A stretch of DNA of 57,324 nucleotides from a virus (taxonomy: Duplodnaviria; Caudoviricetes), in IMG/VR virus record IMGVR_UViG_3300029318_000006, positions 1-57,324 of that record. The stretch is one strand, 5' to 3'. Under the pieces are notes generated by a model, which searched no databases, had not been told where the DNA came from, and saw only the letters and a list, made by a program, of their open reading frames with translations. The translations under genes were made by a program, and so were the position numbers. Each line of letters begins with the position of its first letter. Position 1 is the first letter of the stretch. Of this stretch, positions 7,610-38,002 are shown in pieces.

Positions 7610-10045
7610 ATGAAAGACGTTGAGATATTACTAAACCCCGCAGGTTTTCCAAATCAATTTGCCACTGATGCTGAAAAAGCAACAATGGAGTATGGATTAC
7701 AGGTAGGTCAGGCCATTCAATATGAGTGGTTTAGAAAAGGTGGAGGTAGCTGTAGATACTATAGTCAGCTCCAATCTTTTAATCAATTAAGAAGATATGC
7801 AAGAGGTGAGCAATCAGTAGCTAAATACAAAAATGAATTAGCTATTGATGGTGACTTATCTTATTTAAATTTGGATTGGACTCCAGTTCCCATCCTTCCT
7901 AAGTTTGTAGACATTGTTGTCAATGGAATGTCTAATAGATTATTCCACGTAAAAGCATATGCTCAAGATGCTTTGTCAAGCGAACACAGAAACAAATACC
8001 AGAAGTTAGTTGAAAGAGATATGCTTAATAAAGATATCTTTAGTGACTTCCAAGAGTCTTTTGGTATCAACCCATTTATGACAGATGTAGAAGATCTTCC
8101 AGAAAATGATGAAGAACTTCAATTGCATATGCAACTAAAATATAAGCCATCTATTGAAGTGGCTGAAGAAGAAGCTATTAATACCATACTAGATGAAAAT
8201 CACTACTTAGATGTAAAAAGAAGAGTAGATTATGATATGACTGTTTTGGGTGTGGGTATGGCTAAACACCAGTTTTTACCAGGCAGTGGTATTCAGGTAG
8301 ATTATGTTGACCCAGCCAACGTAGTGTATAGTTATACAGAGGATCCACATTTTAAAGATTGTTTTTATTGGGGTGAGATTAAAACAATGCCAATTGCAGA
8401 GCTTATTAAGATTAACCCTGATTTAACTAACGAAGATTTAAAAAAGATATCTCAATATAGTCAAGGTTGGTATGATTATTACAATATCAATAGGTTTTAT
8501 GAAAACAGTTTGTTTTATAAAGACACTGCTACACTATTATATTTTAATTACAAAACCACTAAAAAGTTTGTATATAAGAAAAAGATGTTAGAAGGTGGTG
8601 GAGAAAGAATGATTGAAAAAGACGATAGTTTCAATCCACCAGAAGAAATGATGAAGGAGGGTAAGTTTGAGAGAGTAGAAAAAACTATTGAGGTTTGGTA
8701 TGAAGGTATTATGGTAGCTGGCTCTAACATTATGTTAAAGTGGGAGATGGCTAAGAATATGGTTCGACCTAAGTCAGCATCTCAACACGCAATGCCTAAT
8801 TATGTGGCTTGTGCTCCAAGAATGTACAAAGGAAACATAGAATCTTTAGTAAGAAGAATGATTCCTTTTGCAGACCAAATACAAATTACACACTTAAAAC
8901 TACAACAGGTAGTAGCTAAAATGGTTCCAGACGGTGTATTTATAGACGCTGATGGATTAAATGAAGTAGACTTAGGTACTGGTCAAGCCTATAATCCTGA
9001 AGACGCTCTAAGGCTTTATTTCCAAACAGGTAGTGTAGTAGGTAGAAGTTATACTCAAGATGGTGAGTTTAACAATGCCAGAGTTCCTATACAGCAACTT
9101 AATACTAGTAGTGGTCAGTCTAAAATGGCTGCACTTATTGGAAACTACAATCATTATCTAGGAATGATTAGAGCAGTAACTGGACTAAATGAAGCTAGAG
9201 ATGGTTCTACTCCAGATCCAAATGCATTGGTAGGTGTTCAAAAATTAGCAGCACTAAACTCTAATACAGCTACTAGACATATACTAGAAGGTAGTTTATA
9301 TATAAGCAGAACCATTGCTGAAGGGTTGTCGCTAAGAATAGCTGATTTACTAGAGTTTGCTCCATTCAAAGAAGAGTTCGCTAATCAAATAGGAAAGTAT
9401 AATGTAGATAGAATAGAAGATATTAAAGACTTGTATTTATATGACTTTGGAATATTTATTGAAGTAGCTCCAGATGAGGAGGAAAAAGCAATGCTAGAGC
9501 AGAATATTCAAATGGCATTATCTAAAAACGATATTAATTTAGAAGACGCTATTGATATTAGAGAAGTAAGAAATCTTAAGATGGCTAATCAGTTATTGAA
9601 ACTGAAAAGAAAAAGAAAACAAGATGCTGATAGAGAGGCTGCTGCTTTACAACAACAGATGACTGCACAAACACAATTCCAGTCTCAGCAAATATCTGCT
9701 CAAGCAGCACAACAAAAAATACAGTTAGAGGGTGAGATGAAAATGAGAGAGAAACAAGCAGAAGTGGCCTTTGAGATAGAGAAGTTGAAAAACGAAGCAG
9801 CTCTTAAACAACAGCTAATGAGTTATGAGTTTCAACTTAATATGCAATTAAAAGGTGTTGAAGAAAGTCAGATAAACAAAAGAGAAGAAAGTAGAGAGAA
9901 AGCAAAGTCTGATAGAATAAGCCAACAAAACACGGAGCAGTCTCAATTAATTAATCAGAGAAAAAAAGATTTACCTCCAATTAATTTTGAGTCCAAAGAA
10001 GATAGTTTAGATGGGTTCGATTTAGCAGAGTTTGAACCTAGATAA
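7610..10045 (+). CDS. Portal protein
   Basis: 811 aa directly after TerL; PILPKFVDIVVNG, TGLNEARDG, Q-rich coiled-coil barrel (P22/crAss-like). Confidence 0.85.
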   Translation: MKDVEILLNPAGFPNQFATDAEKATMEYGLQVGQAIQYEWFRKGGGSCRYYSQLQSFNQLRRYARGEQSVAKYKNELAIDGDLSYLNLDWTPVPILPKFVDIVVNGMSNRLFHVKAYAQDALSSEHRNKYQKLVERDMLNKDIFSDFQESFGINPFMTDVEDLPENDEELQLHMQLKYKPSIEVAEEEAINTILDENHYLDVKRRVDYDMTVLGVGMAKHQFLPGSGIQVDYVDPANVVYSYTEDPHFKDCFYWGEIKTMPIAELIKINPDLTNEDLKKISQYSQGWYDYYNINRFYENSLFYKDTATLLYFNYKTTKKFVYKKKMLEGGGERMIEKDDSFNPPEEMMKEGKFERVEKTIEVWYEGIMVAGSNIMLKWEMAKNMVRPKSASQHAMPNYVACAPRMYKGNIESLVRRMIPFADQIQITHLKLQQVVAKMVPDGVFIDADGLNEVDLGTGQAYNPEDALRLYFQTGSVVGRSYTQDGEFNNARVPIQQLNTSSGQSKMAALIGNYNHYLGMIRAVTGLNEARDGSTPDPNALVGVQKLAALNSNTATRHILEGSLYISRTIAEGLSLRIADLLEFAPFKEEFANQIGKYNVDRIEDIKDLYLYDFGIFIEVAPDEEEKAMLEQNIQMALSKNDINLEDAIDIREVRNLKMANQLLKLKRKRKQDADREAAALQQQMTAQTQFQSQQISAQAAQQKIQLEGEMKMREKQAEVAFEIEKLKNEAALKQQLMSYEFQLNMQLKGVEESQINKREESREKAKSDRISQQNTEQSQLINQRKKDLPPINFESKEDSLDGFDLAEFEPR

Positions 10046-10063
10046 AATAAATAAAATAATTAG

Positions 10064-10071
10064 TAACTTTG
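10064..10071 (+). promoter_or_regulatory. -7 element TAACTTTG (capsid operon)
   Basis: TAnnTTTG before the scaffold gene. Confidence 0.65.
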
Positions 10072-10090
10072 CATAATAAAATCAAATCAA

Positions 10091-11236
10091 ATGGAAATTA
10101 AAGTAAAAGAGTACGATGCTGGACCGCAAAAGTCTAAGGCACAAGTAGAAGAAGAATTATTACAAAAGCACGAAGCCGAAGTAAGCGGTGAAACTGCAGA
10201 AGAAACTAAGGTAGAATCAGTTAAAGTAGAAGCAACTGGACAAACAGAAGAACCTACTAAAACTGAAGAAACCGTAAAAGAAGAACCCGTTGTGGAAGAA
10301 AAGCCACAAATGGGGGAACAAGAAGTTCTTTCATTTATTAGGGAAAAGTATAGTAAGGAAGTAGAGTCTATTGATGACTTATTTACTAAAAGAGAGCAAG
10401 AAGAGTTACCATCAGATGTAGCTACTTACTTACAATACAAAAAAGACACTGGTCGAGGATTTGAAGATTTTGCTAAAATTAGTAGAGATTATAGTAAAGA
10501 AAGTCCTGACCAAGTATTATCTATGTATTACGCAGAGATGGAAGAGGGTTTAGATAGGGATGAAATAGACTATCTACTTAACTCTAAGTTTGGAACTGAT
10601 CCAGAAGTGGATTCAGAAGATGACATTAAAAAGAAAAAAATAGATAAGAAAAAAGAGCTTGCGAAGGCTTTGAAATACTTTGAAGGTCAAAAAGAAAAAT
10701 ACAAAGTTCCTATTGAGTCAATGGGCACTAAAGTTTCTGATGAAGACCAACAAATGTTAAAAGCCTATCAAGAACAAATGGAGAAATCCAAGGAAGCTCA
10801 AAGCTTAGCCCAAAAGCGAGCAGAGAGCTTTCAGGAGAACACCAATAAATTGTTTACTGAAGAATTTAAAGGTTTTAAGTTTAACATCAGTGATAAAGAA
10901 TATGTTTATTCTCCTGGCGATTTCAACGAACTGAAGAAGTCTCAATCTGACATTATGAACTTTATATCAAAGTTTACTAATGATCAAGGAGAGATATCGG
11001 ATGTAGTTGGATATCACAAGTCGTTGTCAATGGCAATGAATCCTGAAAAGTTCGCAAAGTATTTTTACGAGCAAGGGGTGGCATCAGCGGTTAATGAGTC
11101 TGCTAAAAAATCTAAAAATATAAATTTAGATATGAGGCAAACTCCGCAAGTGACATCAAAACAAGGATTTAGTGTTAAAGCTACGACTCCCTCGTCTAGG
11201 CGAGGATTGACAATTAGGTCACCAAAAAATAAATAA
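10091..11236 (+). CDS. Capsid scaffolding protein
   Basis: Acidic E-rich N-terminus and coiled-coil; lies between portal and MCP. Confidence 0.7.
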   Translation: MEIKVKEYDAGPQKSKAQVEEELLQKHEAEVSGETAEETKVESVKVEATGQTEEPTKTEETVKEEPVVEEKPQMGEQEVLSFIREKYSKEVESIDDLFTKREQEELPSDVATYLQYKKDTGRGFEDFAKISRDYSKESPDQVLSMYYAEMEEGLDRDEIDYLLNSKFGTDPEVDSEDDIKKKKIDKKKELAKALKYFEGQKEKYKVPIESMGTKVSDEDQQMLKAYQEQMEKSKEAQSLAQKRAESFQENTNKLFTEEFKGFKFNISDKEYVYSPGDFNELKKSQSDIMNFISKFTNDQGEISDVVGYHKSLSMAMNPEKFAKYFYEQGVASAVNESAKKSKNINLDMRQTPQVTSKQGFSVKATTPSSRRGLTIRSPKNK

Positions 11237-32745: not shown

Positions 32746-32987
32746 AATAATTTTTGAATTTCAGAACACTTTTCATAATCTTCTAAGTCCATAAAGTGGT
32801 CAAACATCATTTCTATTACATATTTATCGTTGGGACTCTCTGGATCGTGAGCAAATAATATATCTAGATTTACTACATCAAATTCAATTTCATCTATAAT
32901 ATCTTCAACAGTCATTCCTTTTACTATTATCTTATAACTATTTAAAAATGCTTGATGAATTCTATCTGGGTCAGTTAATCTTTTCAT
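32742..32987 (-). CDS. Hypothetical protein with UVR-like C-terminal motif
   Basis: EDYEKCSEIQK resembles the UvrB/C coiled motif. Confidence 0.6.
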   Translation of the reverse strand: MKRLTDPDRIHQAFLNSYKIIVKGMTVEDIIDEIEFDVVNLDILFAHDPESPNDKYVIEMMFDHFMDLEDYEKCSEIQKLL

Positions 32988-35389
32988 ATATCTAATTTAC
33001 TATTATATTCTGCTTCGTGTTTACTTCTCATTCTTATCCATTTTCCTTTATGATCCTTGCCTTCATCAGGACTAACTCCTGTTTTAAATACTGCGTAAGA
33101 GTTTAGCCATTGATAAAACTTAGTTCTAGAAACAGTCATTTTGGCTTTTGGAGCAAAGTCTGGATTCTCAGAAATAAAATCCATATATAGTTCTTGTTTG
33201 TATATTTTATGACCATTATCAAAATCTTCATTAGGACTCTTCCCGTCTAATAATCCACACCACTCAATAAATTCGTGACAAGTTTCAGCAGATAACTGAC
33301 GTATCTTAAGATTAACAAAAGAGCTTTTAACTAGTCCTTTATTCATATAAAACTGTAGGCAATATATCATATAGTTATCAAACCTGCACCACTCATCAGC
33401 ACTCCAGTCACCAAACATTAACTTACCAAACTCATCATAAGGAGTAAATGACTTGTTATAATATTGATTAAGCTCTAGCTCCCACTTCCTTCTTTCAAAA
33501 GAGTTACCCTTTCCTTTTATTGCATAGTTAGTAGTGATAGCTACCTTTGGTGACTTTTTAAAAGGAATCTTAATAGCATCCTTGTTTTTCTTCTCTAGTG
33601 TCAATCCTTCTGTAATCACACTAAACAATCTCTCAAAGTCAAAGTGTTTTCTAACATCATCAAAACAAAGTATTTGAGTGTCTGCTGATACTAATTGATA
33701 AGCAAAAGATTTTTCGAAGTTGAATCCTTTTCCATCAATAACTACTAATTTTTTCATATGTTGTAAAGCATTCATAAATAAACCCTTACCCGTTCCTCCT
33801 TCTGGATTATCACTAATTACCTCATCATTTAAAATCACTGCTGGGCAGTAAGATAAATTCTTATAACCGTGCATTAAATAACCTATAGTACTTTCAGTAG
33901 ACTCTATTCTTTTGTCATCTTTAGCACATATGTTAGATACAAATTTTTTGTAATCACACTCAATAGACTCGCAGTCTGTGTAATCTCTATCAATAACGTG
34001 GTCTTTCCAAACGTACCCACCTAAATCAATATAGTCTATTGGTGTTACGGTATCGTTGGTTATTTTAACTGCACAGTTTTTATAATATATGTAAGACTCG
34101 TTCTTGGTGTCTTCAATAAAGAATACATCTATAGAGTCTAGTAGAGTTAAAAATTCTTCTCTAAAATATTTAGTGTGCTCAGCAAAATAATTATACACCT
34201 CTATGTCATCAACAGTTAGTAAGTGTTTTAATATGAAATCTTTAATCTGCTTTTCAGATGCGTGATCTATTAGGTTGTTGGTAACTTTTACAAATACATA
34301 GTTTTTACTTCCTTCAGGATTGTACTTATAAAAACCATTTTCTTCTAAAAACATTTTAAATTTTAAATGAAATATTTTTATAACACCCTTTTTGTTTTTG
34401 GTCCAAAACTTATTATCAAAACCTTCCTCTTGGATTTTATCTATTACATTATCTAAAACCTCCTCATCTATGTCCTCAAAGTATTTTTTAATATCTGTCT
34501 TAGATTTACCTTTTAATATGTTTGATTTAATAGCATTCAACGTATCTGAGTCTTCGTAAACTCTTGTTCCAAAATTAGCTATGTTGGAATACGCAGAGTC
34601 AATAGTCCTTTTAATCTCATTTAAATTAAAATCTTGAGACTGAAATCCATTTAGCACATACTCTGCAAGTGACTTTTCAATACCAAAGTCATTAAATGAT
34701 GAAGCCAATATGAAAGCATTTTGGTTTCTTTGACCCTCATTCATTGGATACTTTTTCTCCCACCACTTAATTAGTATATCCACTATCTTAGTTTGATCGG
34801 TAATAGGTATGGTAATTTCTTTTTTATCTATTGCATTAGGTGTTTCTATTATTTTATCCCACAATAAAGATTCTTCATTAACGTGAATAATAGGATCATA
34901 GCTCTCATAACATACTCTTGATATGTTTTTAGAAGTGCTATCAAAAAAAGGTGAATCAAAGTATTGTTGAAGTGATGCAAAATATTTCACGTGCATATCA
35001 ATATCAGAAGGGACCCTGATTAAAACCTTGAGTCCCTTTCCTGATGGAGAGATGAAAACACAATAAACATACTCATCCTTGATTAATTTATCTCTATGCT
35101 GATGTAATTTCTTTTGGGTATCGTACTGGTCGAAGTCCAAACATATCAAACCACTATGCTCTAAAATAGAGTCATCATTTCTTTTATTAAACTTACCACT
35201 AAAACAAATAGCAGGTAGTTGTTGTTTTAATTCGTTTATTTTTTTCTTATCTTTCTCGGTTCTAATCTTTTTTATCAACTCTTCAGAACGACCATCTCTT
35301 ATTCTATCAATGATGTCATTTACTGGTAAATGAAAAGGCTGGGTGGTGTCTTTTATGTTTTTAAATATTGTTATGACGTTTTGTGACAT
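32984..35389 (-). CDS. Primase-helicase (BT4734/VirE-N primase + PriCT + P-loop helicase)
   Basis: KQQLPAICFSG, HSGLICLDFD, FISPSGKGLKV, SRVCYESYDP, EGQRN (PriCT), Walker A GGTGKG, LCFDD. Confidence 0.85.
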   Translation of the reverse strand: MSQNVITIFKNIKDTTQPFHLPVNDIIDRIRDGRSEELIKKIRTEKDKKKINELKQQLPAICFSGKFNKRNDDSILEHSGLICLDFDQYDTQKKLHQHRDKLIKDEYVYCVFISPSGKGLKVLIRVPSDIDMHVKYFASLQQYFDSPFFDSTSKNISRVCYESYDPIIHVNEESLLWDKIIETPNAIDKKEITIPITDQTKIVDILIKWWEKKYPMNEGQRNQNAFILASSFNDFGIEKSLAEYVLNGFQSQDFNLNEIKRTIDSAYSNIANFGTRVYEDSDTLNAIKSNILKGKSKTDIKKYFEDIDEEVLDNVIDKIQEEGFDNKFWTKNKKGVIKIFHLKFKMFLEENGFYKYNPEGSKNYVFVKVTNNLIDHASEKQIKDFILKHLLTVDDIEVYNYFAEHTKYFREEFLTLLDSIDVFFIEDTKNESYIYYKNCAVKITNDTVTPIDYIDLGGYVWKDHVIDRDYTDCESIECDYKKFVSNICAKDDKRIESTESTIGYLMHGYKNLSYCPAVILNDEVISDNPEGGTGKGLFMNALQHMKKLVVIDGKGFNFEKSFAYQLVSADTQILCFDDVRKHFDFERLFSVITEGLTLEKKNKDAIKIPFKKSPKVAITTNYAIKGKGNSFERRKWELELNQYYNKSFTPYDEFGKLMFGDWSADEWCRFDNYMIYCLQFYMNKGLVKSSFVNLKIRQLSAETCHEFIEWCGLLDGKSPNEDFDNGHKIYKQELYMDFISENPDFAPKAKMTVSRTKFYQWLNSYAVFKTGVSPDEGKDHKGKWIRMRSKHEAEYNSKLDI

Positions 35390-35563
35390 ATTTATGACGA
35401 TTTTATGACGATTTAATTTTATATAACTTATTGATATATAGTTATTTATATATATTTATGACGGTTTTGACGATTTTAATAAGAAAAAATAATAAAAAGA
35501 ATAGTATAGTATACCCTATGAAGTTTATTACAAAATATTTTAAAAAAATCGTCATTTCCGTCA
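35374..35563. repeat. Origin-like element A: TGACG iterons, IHF-like site, A-rich spacer, inverted CGTCA
   Basis: TGACG at 35374, 35395, 35406, 35459, 35468; CGTCA at 35550, 35559; TAACTTATTGATA at 35424-35436. Confidence 0.7.
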
Positions 35564-35574
35564 TAATTATAAAT

Positions 35575-35814
35575 TTAGAAAGTAACTTCTTCTGTTGCTT
35601 TCTTTTTAGTAGGCTCAAAAGTGTCTAGCTCCACATATTGTTTTCCAGACTTAGATGTGTTAATATTTAAATTAACCCAACCATTTTTTGCGTTTTCTTT
35701 TAAGAACACTACTGCATCCTCAACTTTAACCGACATTGAACCAACAACCCAATCAGGTTGATTTTCACGAGTTTTAAATAAAAACCCGTCAGCAAAAATT
35801 TTCTCTTTGCTCAT
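35575..35814 (-). CDS. ssb: Probable small single-stranded DNA-binding protein
   Basis: Beta-rich 79 aa with acidic tail ending in F (EEVTF); follows the SSAP and exonuclease genes. Confidence 0.6.
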   Translation of the reverse strand: MSKEKIFADGFLFKTRENQPDWVVGSMSVKVEDAVVFLKENAKNGWVNLNINTSKSGKQYVELDTFEPTKKKATEEVTF

Positions 35815-35835
35815 AACTATATATATTTAAATTAT

Positions 35836-35868
35836 GTCTACAATATAACCTAGTGTAGACTTCTAGGT
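35836..35868 (-). ncRNA. Predicted cis-regulatory H-type RNA pseudoknot in the SSB leader
   Basis: mRNA: ACCUAG-AA-GUCUACA-CUAGGU-UAUAU-UGUAGAC (S1 6 bp, L1 2 nt, S2 7 bp, L3 5 nt, all Watson-Crick). Confidence 0.6.
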
Positions 35869-36606
35869 AAGCTCTTCCTTGATGAAAAATTCATCTATAT
35901 TCTCCGTAGCATCTTTACTAAAGAATTTATTATAAATCTCCAATGCTCTCTCTACTTTTTCTTCTCCGCTTTGAATAAAAGAATCAGTAGGCTCATAGAC
36001 ACCTAACATCTTTGTGTTCTTGTCTATTACATAAAAAACTACTGGAACACCAAATATTTGTTGGTATATATAAGACTGACTATCATAATTATACTTTTTG
36101 GCAGAGTACTTGAATTTAGATATGTCAGAAGTTGTTTTAAGATCAATAATGTAATCTGATGCTAATATATCTGCTTTTCCTTTCCACTTAGCACCCTTTA
36201 TAGTTTTAATTCCAGGAACCTCATACATATTAAACTTACTATATATAAACTCATAAAAATTAAAATTACTTTTCATAACAGAAACTAAACTATCTATGTG
36301 TTCTGCTTCTGACTTTAGTAAAGCAATAGACAAACCGTGTTCTTGTATTTGATTCTTATAGTTTTTTGTATTCCTAGATGTTGAGTCTATAATAACAAAC
36401 TCATCTTTTTTATGTGGCTCTATCATAGACACGTGGAAGTATCTACCCTCTACCATAGCTTTGGTTTCTCCTTTAGTTTTTCTAAAAGAGCGTGGATCAT
36501 TTAGTAAACTGTATATATCAGAGTTAGATAAAAACTGCTTACCAAAGTCACCATAGTATTCTTTATCTTCTTGTAACTTGTATAAAGTTTCTTGTTTACT
36601 AAACAT
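35863..36606 (-). CDS. RecE/ExoVIII-like PD-(D/E)XK exonuclease (DUF3799-like)
   Basis: LSNSDI, GRYFH, KGKADIL...IDLKTT...YNYDSQSYIY. Confidence 0.8.
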   Translation of the reverse strand: MFSKQETLYKLQEDKEYYGDFGKQFLSNSDIYSLLNDPRSFRKTKGETKAMVEGRYFHVSMIEPHKKDEFVIIDSTSRNTKNYKNQIQEHGLSIALLKSEAEHIDSLVSVMKSNFNFYEFIYSKFNMYEVPGIKTIKGAKWKGKADILASDYIIDLKTTSDISKFKYSAKKYNYDSQSYIYQQIFGVPVVFYVIDKNTKMLGVYEPTDSFIQSGEEKVERALEIYNKFFSKDATENIDEFFIKEELT

Positions 36607-37192
36607 AAGTCTTGATTGTTTTAAGAGCTTCTGATGTTAATTCATACTTCTGCTTCAATCTTTTTACTACACCATCAAAACCTAAATGTTTATTATCCAC
36701 TACATACTTCAAGCAATCTTCCCACTTATCATCTCCAAGATCTAAACTAGCTTTTTCACTAGCTTTCTTGCTAGTGCTTTTAGCAGGGGTTGATACCTTG
36801 GATTCAGACTCTGGTAAATCTTCACCTGCATATATATAAAGACCTAATCCGTGTCTTGCTATGGCTTTAGTTAAACTTCTTTGAATACTTTTATTAACAT
36901 CAAAAGAAGTAATTTTATCTATAGTAATTGACTTATTTCTATAGTCCATAACTGGAAGATATTCAATAAGCTCCATACCTCCGATCGTAACACCTGTTTT
37001 TACCCAAGCTGTTTTACCATCGTGATGGTAGCATAATCCATCTGCATTCTCATAAATAGTATAAGTAGCATCAGGACACGTCTTTTTAGTTTCGCTCCAA
37101 GCCCAAGCCCACGATAGGTAAGTCAAGCCATTTTTATTCTCAACGTGTTCATTTACGTTGATGGATGATAATTTTTCAAATGTGTTTTTCAT
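36599..37192 (-). CDS. Single-strand annealing protein, Sak3/DUF1071 family
   Basis: GLTYLSWAWAW, LPVMDYRN, NKSIQRSLTKAIARHGLGLYIYAGEDLP. Confidence 0.85.
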   Translation of the reverse strand: MKNTFEKLSSINVNEHVENKNGLTYLSWAWAWSETKKTCPDATYTIYENADGLCYHHDGKTAWVKTGVTIGGMELIEYLPVMDYRNKSITIDKITSFDVNKSIQRSLTKAIARHGLGLYIYAGEDLPESESKVSTPAKSTSKKASEKASLDLGDDKWEDCLKYVVDNKHLGFDGVVKRLKQKYELTSEALKTIKTYV

Positions 37193-37580
37193 TTTTGATT
37201 TGATTTAATTGTTTATTTAATTTACTGTACTTACTTAGCACATTCTCTTTTTGGTTTTTATAATGCCTAACTTGTCTGGTGTTGCCATCTTGATATGCAT
37301 TTCTTGTTCTTATAAATAGTTTATCCAATTTATATTCCAAGTCATTCATTAGTACGTTTATTCTGCCTACTACCCATCCTTCTTCATAAAATATTTGATA
37401 CTCTTCATCCATTATCTCTTGATAGTTTTCTCGATGACATCTAAGTATAAAATACTTATCTCTATCTTTCTCTATCTTAACACCTTTGTGCATAATAGCT
37501 TTGTTAGTCTTGCTATTATCCATATATATGGCAGATCGAATGTTTTTAGCTTGATACCAGAGGTCTTCTATACTGAACAT
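37176..37580 (-). CDS. Hypothetical protein
   Basis: 134-aa ORF overlapping both neighbours. Confidence 0.65.
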   Translation of the reverse strand: MFSIEDLWYQAKNIRSAIYMDNSKTNKAIMHKGVKIEKDRDKYFILRCHRENYQEIMDEEYQIFYEEGWVVGRINVLMNDLEYKLDKLFIRTRNAYQDGNTRQVRHYKNQKENVLSKYSKLNKQLNQIKNEKHI

Positions 37581-37870
37581 TTTAATTCTTTTACAAGATC
37601 TCTTAAGTCACTATCTACTCGCATTTCATTCTTAATTTTCTCTTGTCCATATAATATATTGGAATGAGCCATTTTGTGATTATGCTCACTAAGAATATAG
37701 TCTTGGATGTAACAAGGTCTTATATTTCTATCCTTACATAGATAGAAGTAAATCTGTCTAGCATCAATATGATTTCTCTTTTTAGATTTGTTAAATAGAC
37801 TCTCGACTGGTACTTGTAGCTTTTCTACTACTACCTTCTCTATTTTCTGGAGTGCTTCTTCTTTTGTCAT
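37568..37870 (-). CDS. DnaA domain IV-like HTH DNA-binding protein
   Basis: KSKKRNHIDARQIYFYLC...HSNILYG matches the Bac_DnaA_C pattern (xSRxxxxxxARQIAMYL...DHTTVLH). Confidence 0.7.
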   Translation of the reverse strand: MTKEEALQKIEKVVVEKLQVPVESLFNKSKKRNHIDARQIYFYLCKDRNIRPCYIQDYILSEHNHKMAHSNILYGQEKIKNEMRVDSDLRDLVKELKCSV

Positions 37871-37970
37871 TTGATTGTATTAAATTGTAGTATTCATAGT
37901 CATAAAAATCTTGACTATTCATTATAATTAAATTTTCGAATTCTCTTTTACTTTGTCCCATTTTAGTTTG

Positions 37971-38002
37971 CTAATATAATATTTGTCAATGAAATATCCA
38001 AA
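37971..38002 (-). promoter_or_regulatory. Leftward promoter TTTG-N20-TATATTAG(C)
   Basis: -33 TTTG plus a variant -7 element at Bacteroidota spacing. Confidence 0.55.

Follow-up and report, generated by a model that had tools for sequence, protein, structure and literature searches.

An RNA pseudoknot in front of a small SSB-like gene recurs among phage lineages and may resemble the T4 gene 32 operator

The pseudoknot and its locus

The virus record IMGVR_UViG_3300029318_000006 is a complete record of 57,324 bases, and this whole stretch of DNA is referred to here as the window. Its minus strand carries an RNA pseudoknot in the leader of a small gene, which encodes a 79-amino-acid (79-aa) protein that is putatively similar to single-stranded DNA-binding proteins (SSBs) and follows directly on an exonuclease gene. 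Comparison with related phage loci makes it very probable that this element is an RNA pseudoknot under selection and that it acts where the small gene starts. The genes of the locus and the parts of the knot are as follows, with RNA letters given for the minus strand.

36599..37192, minus strand: gene for a Sak-type single-strand annealing protein (PF06378, E 6.2e-43; phrog_659, E 1.6e-62)
35863..36606, minus strand: gene for a PD-(D/E)XK exonuclease (PF12684 (DUF3799), E 8.7e-18; phrog_412 'exonuclease VIII', E 4.1e-28)
35575..35814, minus strand: small putative SSB-like gene, 79 aa, of an uncharacterised family; core of ~65 aa, tail ...EEVTF
32984-35389, minus strand: large primase/helicase-like gene, the last in the order Sak, exonuclease, 79-aa open reading frame (ORF), primase/helicase
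35863..35868, minus strand: stem 1, 5' strand, ACCUAG, pairing with 35848-35853 and holding the exonuclease stop codon UAG (35865-35863)
35861..35862, minus strand: loop 1, AA
35854..35860, minus strand: stem 2, 5' strand, GUCUACA, forming 7 bp with 35836-35842
35848..35853, minus strand: stem 1, 3' strand, CUAGGU, directly after the 5' strand of stem 2 with no loop 2
35843..35847, minus strand: loop 3, UAUAU
35836..35842, minus strand: stem 2, 3' strand, UGUAGAC
35815..35835, minus strand: unpaired AU-rich spacer of 21 nt, the translation initiation region, with A at -12, -13, -14 and -6
35814-35812, minus strand: start codon ATG of the 79-aa gene

The initial annotation of this DNA had described a perfect H-type pseudoknot in the minus-strand leader, and such a knot is indeed present at 35868-35836, with a stem 1 of 6 bp, a loop 1 of 2 nt, a stem 2 of 7 bp, no loop 2 and a loop 3 of 5 nt (6/2/7/0/5, in the order used below). 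All of its 13 pairs are Watson-Crick (13/13), the two helices abut, and the element measures 33 nt in total, with 48 nt lying between the exonuclease stop and the start codon of the 79-aa ORF. Its energy is given as stack sums only (ViennaRNA does not score knots), which amount to -10.5 kcal/mol for stem 1 and -12.3 kcal/mol for stem 2, compared with -5.3 and -6.1 kcal/mol for either hairpin alone. An alternative pairing of the window's stem-2 loop with positions -8..-1 (three G-U among eight pairs) was considered and rejected, as it is not kept in the related locus L004.

Two interleaved inverted repeats of this kind could also occur by chance and have no function. When both strands are scanned, the window holds one perfect 6+7 bp knot of this loop range, and dinucleotide shuffles of the whole window hold 0.29 such knots on average; because an equally perfect knot turns up in 33 of 150 shuffled windows, scanning 57 kb will often yield one, and the whole-window find is not significant by itself. 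A nested fold gives the leader no unusual stability (z -0.51), which is also what chance would give. Among shuffles of the 100-nt leader, scored for knots ending 10-25 nt before the ATG, 47 of 4000 reach the observed score. The window sequence alone does not settle the pseudoknot, and the real support is comparative.

Conservation of the fold among related loci

Searches with the 79-aa protein yielded 31 viral loci, 80 metagenome loci and one GenBank phage. The window's own group comprises 42 loci, of which 9 carry the window-type knot, 9 carry a stem 1 reading ACUAG/CUAGU (a C-G to A-U exchange with a one-base shift; L004/L008 type), and 21 combine ACUAG/CUAGU with UGUAGAU, turning the outer pair of stem 2 into G-U. 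The change of the last C of stem 2 to U (place 35836) is also found in a public run. The loci L061 and L062 are more divergent, encoding proteins 83% and 76% identical to that of the window and upstream exonucleases 60% identical, and their leaders (54-62% identical to the window's) follow the same plan with other stem letters. The L061 knot has a stem 1 of 13 bp (two G-U), a loop 1 of 1 nt, a stem 2 of 7 bp, no loop 2, a loop 3 of 9 nt and a spacer of 21 nt, and the corresponding values for L062 are 10 bp, 3 nt, 7 bp, 1 nt, 13 nt and 20 nt. Across the window-group, L061 and L062 lineages, spacer length stays at 20-24 nt.

The changes in the stems are compensatory. In stem 2, position 1 is occupied by G-C, G-U, C-G or A-U, position 2 by U-A or C-G, position 3 by C-G or U-A and position 4 by U-A or C-G, with positions 5-7 constant (ACA/UGU), so that four of the seven pairs are changed on both sides in L061/L062. 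Over five variants (window, L004, L008, L061 and L062), every cell is paired in stem 2 (35/35) and in stem 1 (39/39), compared with at most 19/35 and 24/39 when the 3' strand is slid by 1-3 nt. Shuffled leaders reach the observed score in 0 of 4000 cases for L061 and 3 of 4000 for L062. Because MAFFT failed to find the register of the L061 and L062 leaders and shifted the 3' strand of stem 2 in a further lineage (clade B, below), the pair tables were scripted in the analysts' own register, not an aligner's.

A wider sample was obtained by a profile search of viral contigs, which gave 476 relatives, of which 80 were kept. In a scan with settings fixed beforehand, 16 of 65 distinct leaders from the kept relatives scored at least 12, revealing the knot lineages L155, L159/L170, L194, L201, L219 and L221, including a 6/2/8/0/7 knot ending 18 nt before the ATG (L155) and a 16/1/7/0/8 knot ending 20 nt before it (L221). 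The loci from these searches and the window were also pooled in a survey of 190 loci with at least 100 nt upstream (loci with less were left out), corresponding to 97 distinct leaders in 23 clusters (72% identity, single linkage). With a scan somewhat looser than the fixed settings and 300 shuffles per leader, a member of 11 of the 23 clusters reached p<=0.007 and 43 of the 97 leaders reached p<=0.02; the same test was passed by 2 of 132 other gene starts from the same loci and the window. In these 11 clusters, the family knots end 12-23 nt before the ATG. The L021 type is counted but weak, because its knot-like pairing lies within the coding end of the exonuclease and shows almost no variation.

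Two further clades have knots in leaders of their own. In clade B (L024, L068, L073-L089, L184, L201 and L219; 11 distinct leaders), the leader, ~100 nt before the small gene, contains a hairpin and a second kind of pseudoknot. The hairpin (8 bp), in which a U-A pair is exchanged for C-G, begins at the exonuclease stop, and the knot has a stem 1 of 7-9 bp and a stem 2 of 5-6 bp and ends 12-14 nt before the ATG. Of 165 cells in the hairpin and stem 1, 99.4% are paired, and neither this pairing nor the covariation score is equalled in any of 500 shuffles (0/500); stem 2 occurs in at least four letter sets (UUCCCU/AGGGAA, UCCCCU/AGGGGA, CCUCCA/UGGAGG and UCCCUC/GAGGGA). In clade C (L162-L198; 12 distinct leaders, with the knot ~55 nt before the small gene), four pairs of the 7-bp stem 2 are changed on both sides, in 16 cells, giving a covariation of 0.369, which none of 500 shuffles attains (0/500; shuffle value 0.085).

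These comparisons show that, in many phage lineages, the fold, a second stem of about 6-8 bp and the spacing to the ATG are kept by selection even as the letters change. Conservation of the architecture via compensatory change, together with the contrast between family clusters and control gene starts, argues against two functionless repeats and makes chance hardly credible as an explanation. Rfam covariance models gave no match at the site at E<=10 (window 34000-38000) or, at E<=1, at the knot sites of 12 representative related loci; as a cis-regulatory RNA motif, the knot is both new and well supported, and Rfam does not contain it.

On the comparative side, several points count against the operator reading proposed below. 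The knot is absent by scan in 12 of the 23 clusters, and nine further loci scanned apart yielded none (0/9); the knotless cases are mostly those where the small gene abuts or overlaps the upstream ORF. The scan thresholds were partly chosen after seeing the data, and the relatives are metagenomic contigs, several of them present in both collections as judged by equal length, so that the loci are not independent. The window's closest clade offers just two informative changes, and stem 1 of clade C (GGAG/CUCC) is invariant. Finally, L006 (the same contig as L146; protein 87% identical) has a 32-nt deletion that takes out stem 2 along with the stem-1 3' strand and some of the spacer, so that 16 nt separate stop and ATG; it is either a natural knock-out variant or an assembly artefact.

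Some further features of these leaders were recorded. In clade B, a local CCUUUU/AAAAGG hairpin competes with stem 2, and in clade C, loop 1 contains a conserved UCAG. Purine-rich, Shine-Dalgarno-like strands (GGAG, UGGAGG, GAGGGA, AGGGAA) occur in the knots of several lineages, 12-21 nt before the ATG. L029, L097-L103 and L110 have no knot and carry a short G/C hairpin on the stop codon (UAGGG...CCCU) followed by 6-7 U, which is terminator-like. L087-L096 and L136-L138 have a knotless gap of 146 nt between the exonuclease and the small gene, containing an apparent conserved small ORF (...FEVPMDC... type) whose end coincides with the SSB-like gene's start. Elsewhere in the window, a second knot-like pairing at 10013-10076 (plus strand) precedes a 381-aa ORF starting at 10091; it has a stem 1 of 9 bp, a stem 2 of 7 bp with G-U and a loop 3 of 25 nt, ends 18 nt before the ATG, is not a tRNA, and is the top-scoring gene start in the window outside the family.

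Position of the knot between stop and start codons

The upstream gene is an exonuclease homolog (47-75% identity) in every knot lineage tested. Its stop codon lies inside stem 1 in the window, L004/L008, L062 and L170, and before stem 1 by 3 nt in L061, 6-7 nt in clade C, 12 nt in L209, 19 nt in L155, 25 nt in L221, ~34 nt in clade B and 70 nt in L187. The stop position relative to the start of stem 1 thus ranges from +4 to -70, with the distance from knot to ATG constant at 12-23 nt, and because the latter is kept while the former varies, the knot belongs to the start of the small gene.

This variation bears directly on translational coupling, in which ribosomes ending at the stem-1 UAG would melt the knot and its opening would set initiation of the small gene. 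In the window, the stop codon lies within stem 1 and a terminating ribosome must therefore melt the knot, as the initial annotation had pointed out; the other lineages with an internal stop and L061 with its 3-nt offset fit the same idea, and the stop codon is also where the first helix begins in clade B and the L029 type. However, in clade C, L209, L155, L221, L218 and L187, where the stop precedes stem 1 by 6-70 nt, the ribosome would miss both stems, and the knot leaves the initiation region itself unsequestered. Coupling is accordingly distinctly unlikely as the main role of the knot; what was said of the window is true there, but it is not a conserved principle, and stop-codon melting is a lineage-specific extra rather than the core mechanism.

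Pseudoknots beside stop codons stimulate recoding in many viruses, which would favor a signal for readthrough or -1 frameshifting at this site. However, no slippery heptamer lies 5-9 nt upstream, the stop itself lies inside stem 1, and the 12 residues that readthrough would append lack conservation, L061 and L062 using UAA in a different context. An intrinsic terminator finds no U-run after stem 2, and a terminator scan was empty on the gene strand at the site. As for a DNA-level site such as an operator or origin, the G-U pairs of the L008 type, L061 and clade B fit sense-strand RNA only, and together with the strand-specific covariation they argue against it; promoter-like matches (8 versus 8.2 expected) show no excess. 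This group of explanations is consequently very improbable.

The spacer after the knot is ordinary in composition. The unstructured AU-rich tract of 21 nt reported in the initial annotation is present, but it is the usual start-site context of the phage and of Bacteroidia and is not operator-specific. Of 80 ORF starts of the window phage, 16 have UUAAA at -18..-13, and the motif stands in 31 of 41 unique family 30-mers versus 21 of 56 window ORF starts. The study of initiation in Flavobacterium and Bacteroidia (PMC6847099) describes A at -12/-13 and -6 and an unpaired region at -20..+20 as general. UUAAA was considered as an operator repeat of the gp32 kind and rejected, and it was dropped as specific evidence because it is common near -15 at the starts of this phage and fits the general A-12/A-13 signal.

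The same setting suggests a role that needs no protein. As a cis-acting insulator or standby element, the knot would lock the G/C-containing gene junction, define the 5' edge of the AU-rich region from about -20 to the ATG and keep this region single-stranded, thereby setting, and probably raising, independent initiation of the small gene relative to the exonuclease gene. The knots end at -12 to -23, just outside the stretch (about -20 to +20) that remains unpaired at Bacteroidia starts according to the same study (PMC6847099); they occur where the start stands free after an intergenic gap and are absent where it overlaps the upstream ORF; and the stem letters vary freely, as expected without a sequence-specific partner. 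However, a plain hairpin would do as well, leaving the recurring pseudoknot topology unexplained, the clade B knot 12-14 nt before the ATG should hinder rather than help ribosome binding, and L006 lives without the knot. Such a function agrees with most of the observations that suit the operator reading below, and is possible but rather unlikely.

The knot could also act on the messenger itself. After cleavage of a polycistronic early transcript, it would act as a barrier, either at the 5' end of the SSB-like message or at the 3' end of the exonuclease message, so that the mRNA of a stoichiometric SSB-like protein would outlive that of a catalytic exonuclease. It lies exactly at the junction of two genes that differ in expected dosage, and a review of the T4 system (PMC3014915) reports an RNase E cut at -71, just before the start of the T4 gene 32 knot at -67, with fast decay of the upstream RNA and an unusually stable gene 32 mRNA. 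However, a barrier needs no fixed 12-23 nt to the ATG. The window is matched in RNA libraries by two metatranscriptome runs from one marine sample, with one contig each (204 and 198 nt) at 35557-35760; both contigs fall inside the SSB-like gene with zero differences, and since they cover only this segment, no transcript ends are visible. They document presence in an RNA library only, so that transcription is not proven and they are silent on the knot. A stability or processing element is thus possible but rather unlikely, on a par with the insulator.

The SSB-like protein and its phage

The 79-aa protein belongs to a large family, with 2032 representatives at E<=0.001 (50% identity) and 3588 clusters whose source names are all 'hypothetical', found mostly in marine phage contigs. 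Its members share a conserved core of ~65 aa, a variable P/Q/G/A-rich linker and an acidic tip. Among the best 150 representatives, 124 end in F, 111 in PF, 102 in [LIVM]PF and 93 in [DE]x?[LIVM]PF, typically as DDLPF or DDIPF. A tip of the ...DDDIPF type is described as the motif by which E. coli SSB docks its partner enzymes (10.64898/2026.04.29.721553; PMC10164576). One relative gave a weak, tail-driven match to phrog_4932, 'single strand DNA binding protein' (E 0.0038).

AlphaFold (AF2) models of the monomer reached predicted local distance difference test (pLDDT) values of 84.2 with 29 sequences and 87.3 with 101 sequences, and both have a strand-strand-helix-strand-strand order. Foldseek gave 0 matches to the PDB at E<=0.001, and for the two models compared with solved chains by VIA-align the best Z scores were 2.3 (root-mean-square deviation 4.0, 52 residues) and 2.1 (root-mean-square deviation 7.9, 74 residues). 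The two-copy model is a symmetric dimer in which strand 25-31 of one chain pairs with strand 45-51 of the other. It scored 0.60, compared with 0.00 for the best of three controls, with contacts 100% alike between runs and a partner pLDDT of at least 77; among proteins of solved structure, 20 of 30 same-chain pairs and 1 of 23 single chains reached this mark of 0.60. Such a predicted swapped dimer would explain why the monomer model matches no fold.

The complete 57-kb phage contains no match to PF00436, to gp32 (PF08804) or to SSBs of the Enc34/T7 type (PF10991). From the SSB-type tail of the family, the position of the gene, the predicted dimer and the lack of any other recognisable SSB in the phage, we infer that the 79-aa protein is SSB-like. 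Several results run counter to this assignment. The protein has no sequence or profile match in Pfam (0 families at E<=0.1), PHROG or the PDB, and none of the 29 family members scanned matches PF00436; ESM Atlas and BFVD searches returned uncharacterised viral proteins only. The oligonucleotide/oligosaccharide-binding (OB) fold that was to be checked for 35575..35814 could not be confirmed, the models matching no solved fold, and the tail of the window copy is degenerate (EEVTF; EEVPF in its closest relatives).

The primase-helicase gene matches phages of Flavobacterium, Polaribacter, Cellulophaga and Maribacter, and the hosts of the cultured relatives of the window phage are Flavobacteriia. 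A scan of genome contigs found zero relatives and therefore provides no prophage or host link. Between the SSB-like and primase/helicase genes, the segment 35390-35575 is AT-rich and contains four direct copies of a 14-nt unit of the TTATGACGATTTTA type, on the plus strand at 35392, 35403, 35456 and 35465, as well as inverted copies at ~35546-35566 that create a 35-nt inverted repeat with 80% complementarity. Judged by sequence, these repeats look like iterons and may be a candidate replication origin or an operator before the primase/helicase gene. A string resembling ATAAACTTAAAT lies 10-25 nt before several minus-strand early-gene starts (43434, 42212, 40902, 29682 and others), but ATAAACTTAAAT is not significantly enriched upstream of the early genes, all on the minus strand (6 matches versus 3.77 expected; 16 of 100 shuffles as high).

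Proposed mechanism and comparison with known systems

By analogy with T4, the knot may be a translational operator of the downstream gene, subject to gene 32-type autoregulation by the dimeric SSB-like protein, a reading that is quite possible but held tentatively. The knot presents two stacked helices and ends ~20 nt before the start, at the upstream edge of an unstructured initiation region. SSB-like protein in excess of the available single-stranded DNA could nucleate at the junction of knot and single strand and spread across the 20-nt AU-rich initiation region, and 30S binding would then be blocked, as it is by gp32 on the T4 gene 32 leader. This reading is favored because it fits the geometry, the type of protein, the constant spacing to the ATG, the freely varying stem letters and the tolerated loss in L006; the stems would be free to drift because the protein would read RNA shape rather than sequence. 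On the other side, since the upstream gene is always an exonuclease, a role at the exonuclease-SSB junction is inseparable from a role for the SSB-like gene. The initial annotation was correct in its observation, and its interpretation is partly supported. A broader proposal, held more tentatively still, is that this large unnamed family of small dimeric phage proteins with a host-SSB tip represents a new kind of SSB that regulates itself via a knot 12-23 nt before its start, the gene 32 circuit having been reinvented independently in hosts that do not use Shine-Dalgarno initiation. If the protein does bind the knot, thousands of 'hypothetical' phage proteins would gain a function, and the knot would offer a way into the study of translational control in systems of the Bacteroidia type, which ignore the Shine-Dalgarno sequence.

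Known systems share parts of this arrangement. Bacterial SSB, with its OB core, disordered linker and ...DDDIPF tip, resembles the family in the sequence of core, linker and tip, in its place in a recombination/replication module and in the predicted homodimer, whereas the family lacks PF00436 and has a core of ~65 aa with a strand-strand-helix-strand-strand order, no match to a solved fold and, in the window, an EEVTF tip. E. coli rpsO (S15) and other ribosomal-protein operators likewise place a leader pseudoknot in autogenous translational control, as described in PMC3985624 and PMC3014915. However, the rpsO knot includes the initiation region and traps the ribosome, whereas the start codon and ~20 nt before it lie outside the knot in the window, and the proteins are unrelated. 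Searches at the level of literature listings found no paper linking pseudoknots with flavobacterial phages, and on phage SSBs, pseudoknots and translational operators they returned only work on T4/RB69 and on unrelated systems.

The closest counterpart is the gene 32 operator of T4, T2 and RB69, in which an SSB gene has an H-type knot upstream of its unstructured, A+U-rich initiation region, as the SSB-like gene has here. The same geometry had been claimed for the window, and the same scanner gives 4/1/7/0/5 for T4 and 6/2/7/0/5 for the window, which are nearly identical; the phage was also rightly called unrelated to T4, sharing no sequence or protein homology with it. In each leader the stop of the upstream ORF lies inside the knot, the segG stop in T4 closing the 5' strand of stem 2 as its final three bases, and in T4 and RB69, as in the present family, structure is kept while sequence diverges (PMC535899). 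The accounts of the T4 operator in PMC535899 and PMC3014915 describe the segG overlap and a knot of ~28 nt followed by more than 40 nt of less structured UUAAA/UAAA RNA, both needed for repression. The differences are nevertheless considerable. The stems have no sequence similarity, and the window protein is no gp32 homolog (no PF08804) and has no recognised OB fold. The T4 knot (28 nt) starts at -67, ends 39 nt before the AUG and is followed by three UUAAA and a Shine-Dalgarno sequence, whereas the tract of the window lineage measures 20-24 nt, with one UUAAA and no Shine-Dalgarno sequence, in a phage whose host has a Bacteroidia-type translation system; and repression is known for T4 but only proposed for the window knot. 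The gene 32 operator has been a near-unique case for decades, a 2010 review (PMC3014915) describing its knot as possibly the only viral example of its kind. Here, an SSB-like gene without homology to gene 32 is preceded by a knot of nearly that geometry, which is found again in many lineages of abundant marine phages, and if the protein binds this knot, the two systems would represent the convergent evolution of an entire regulatory circuit.

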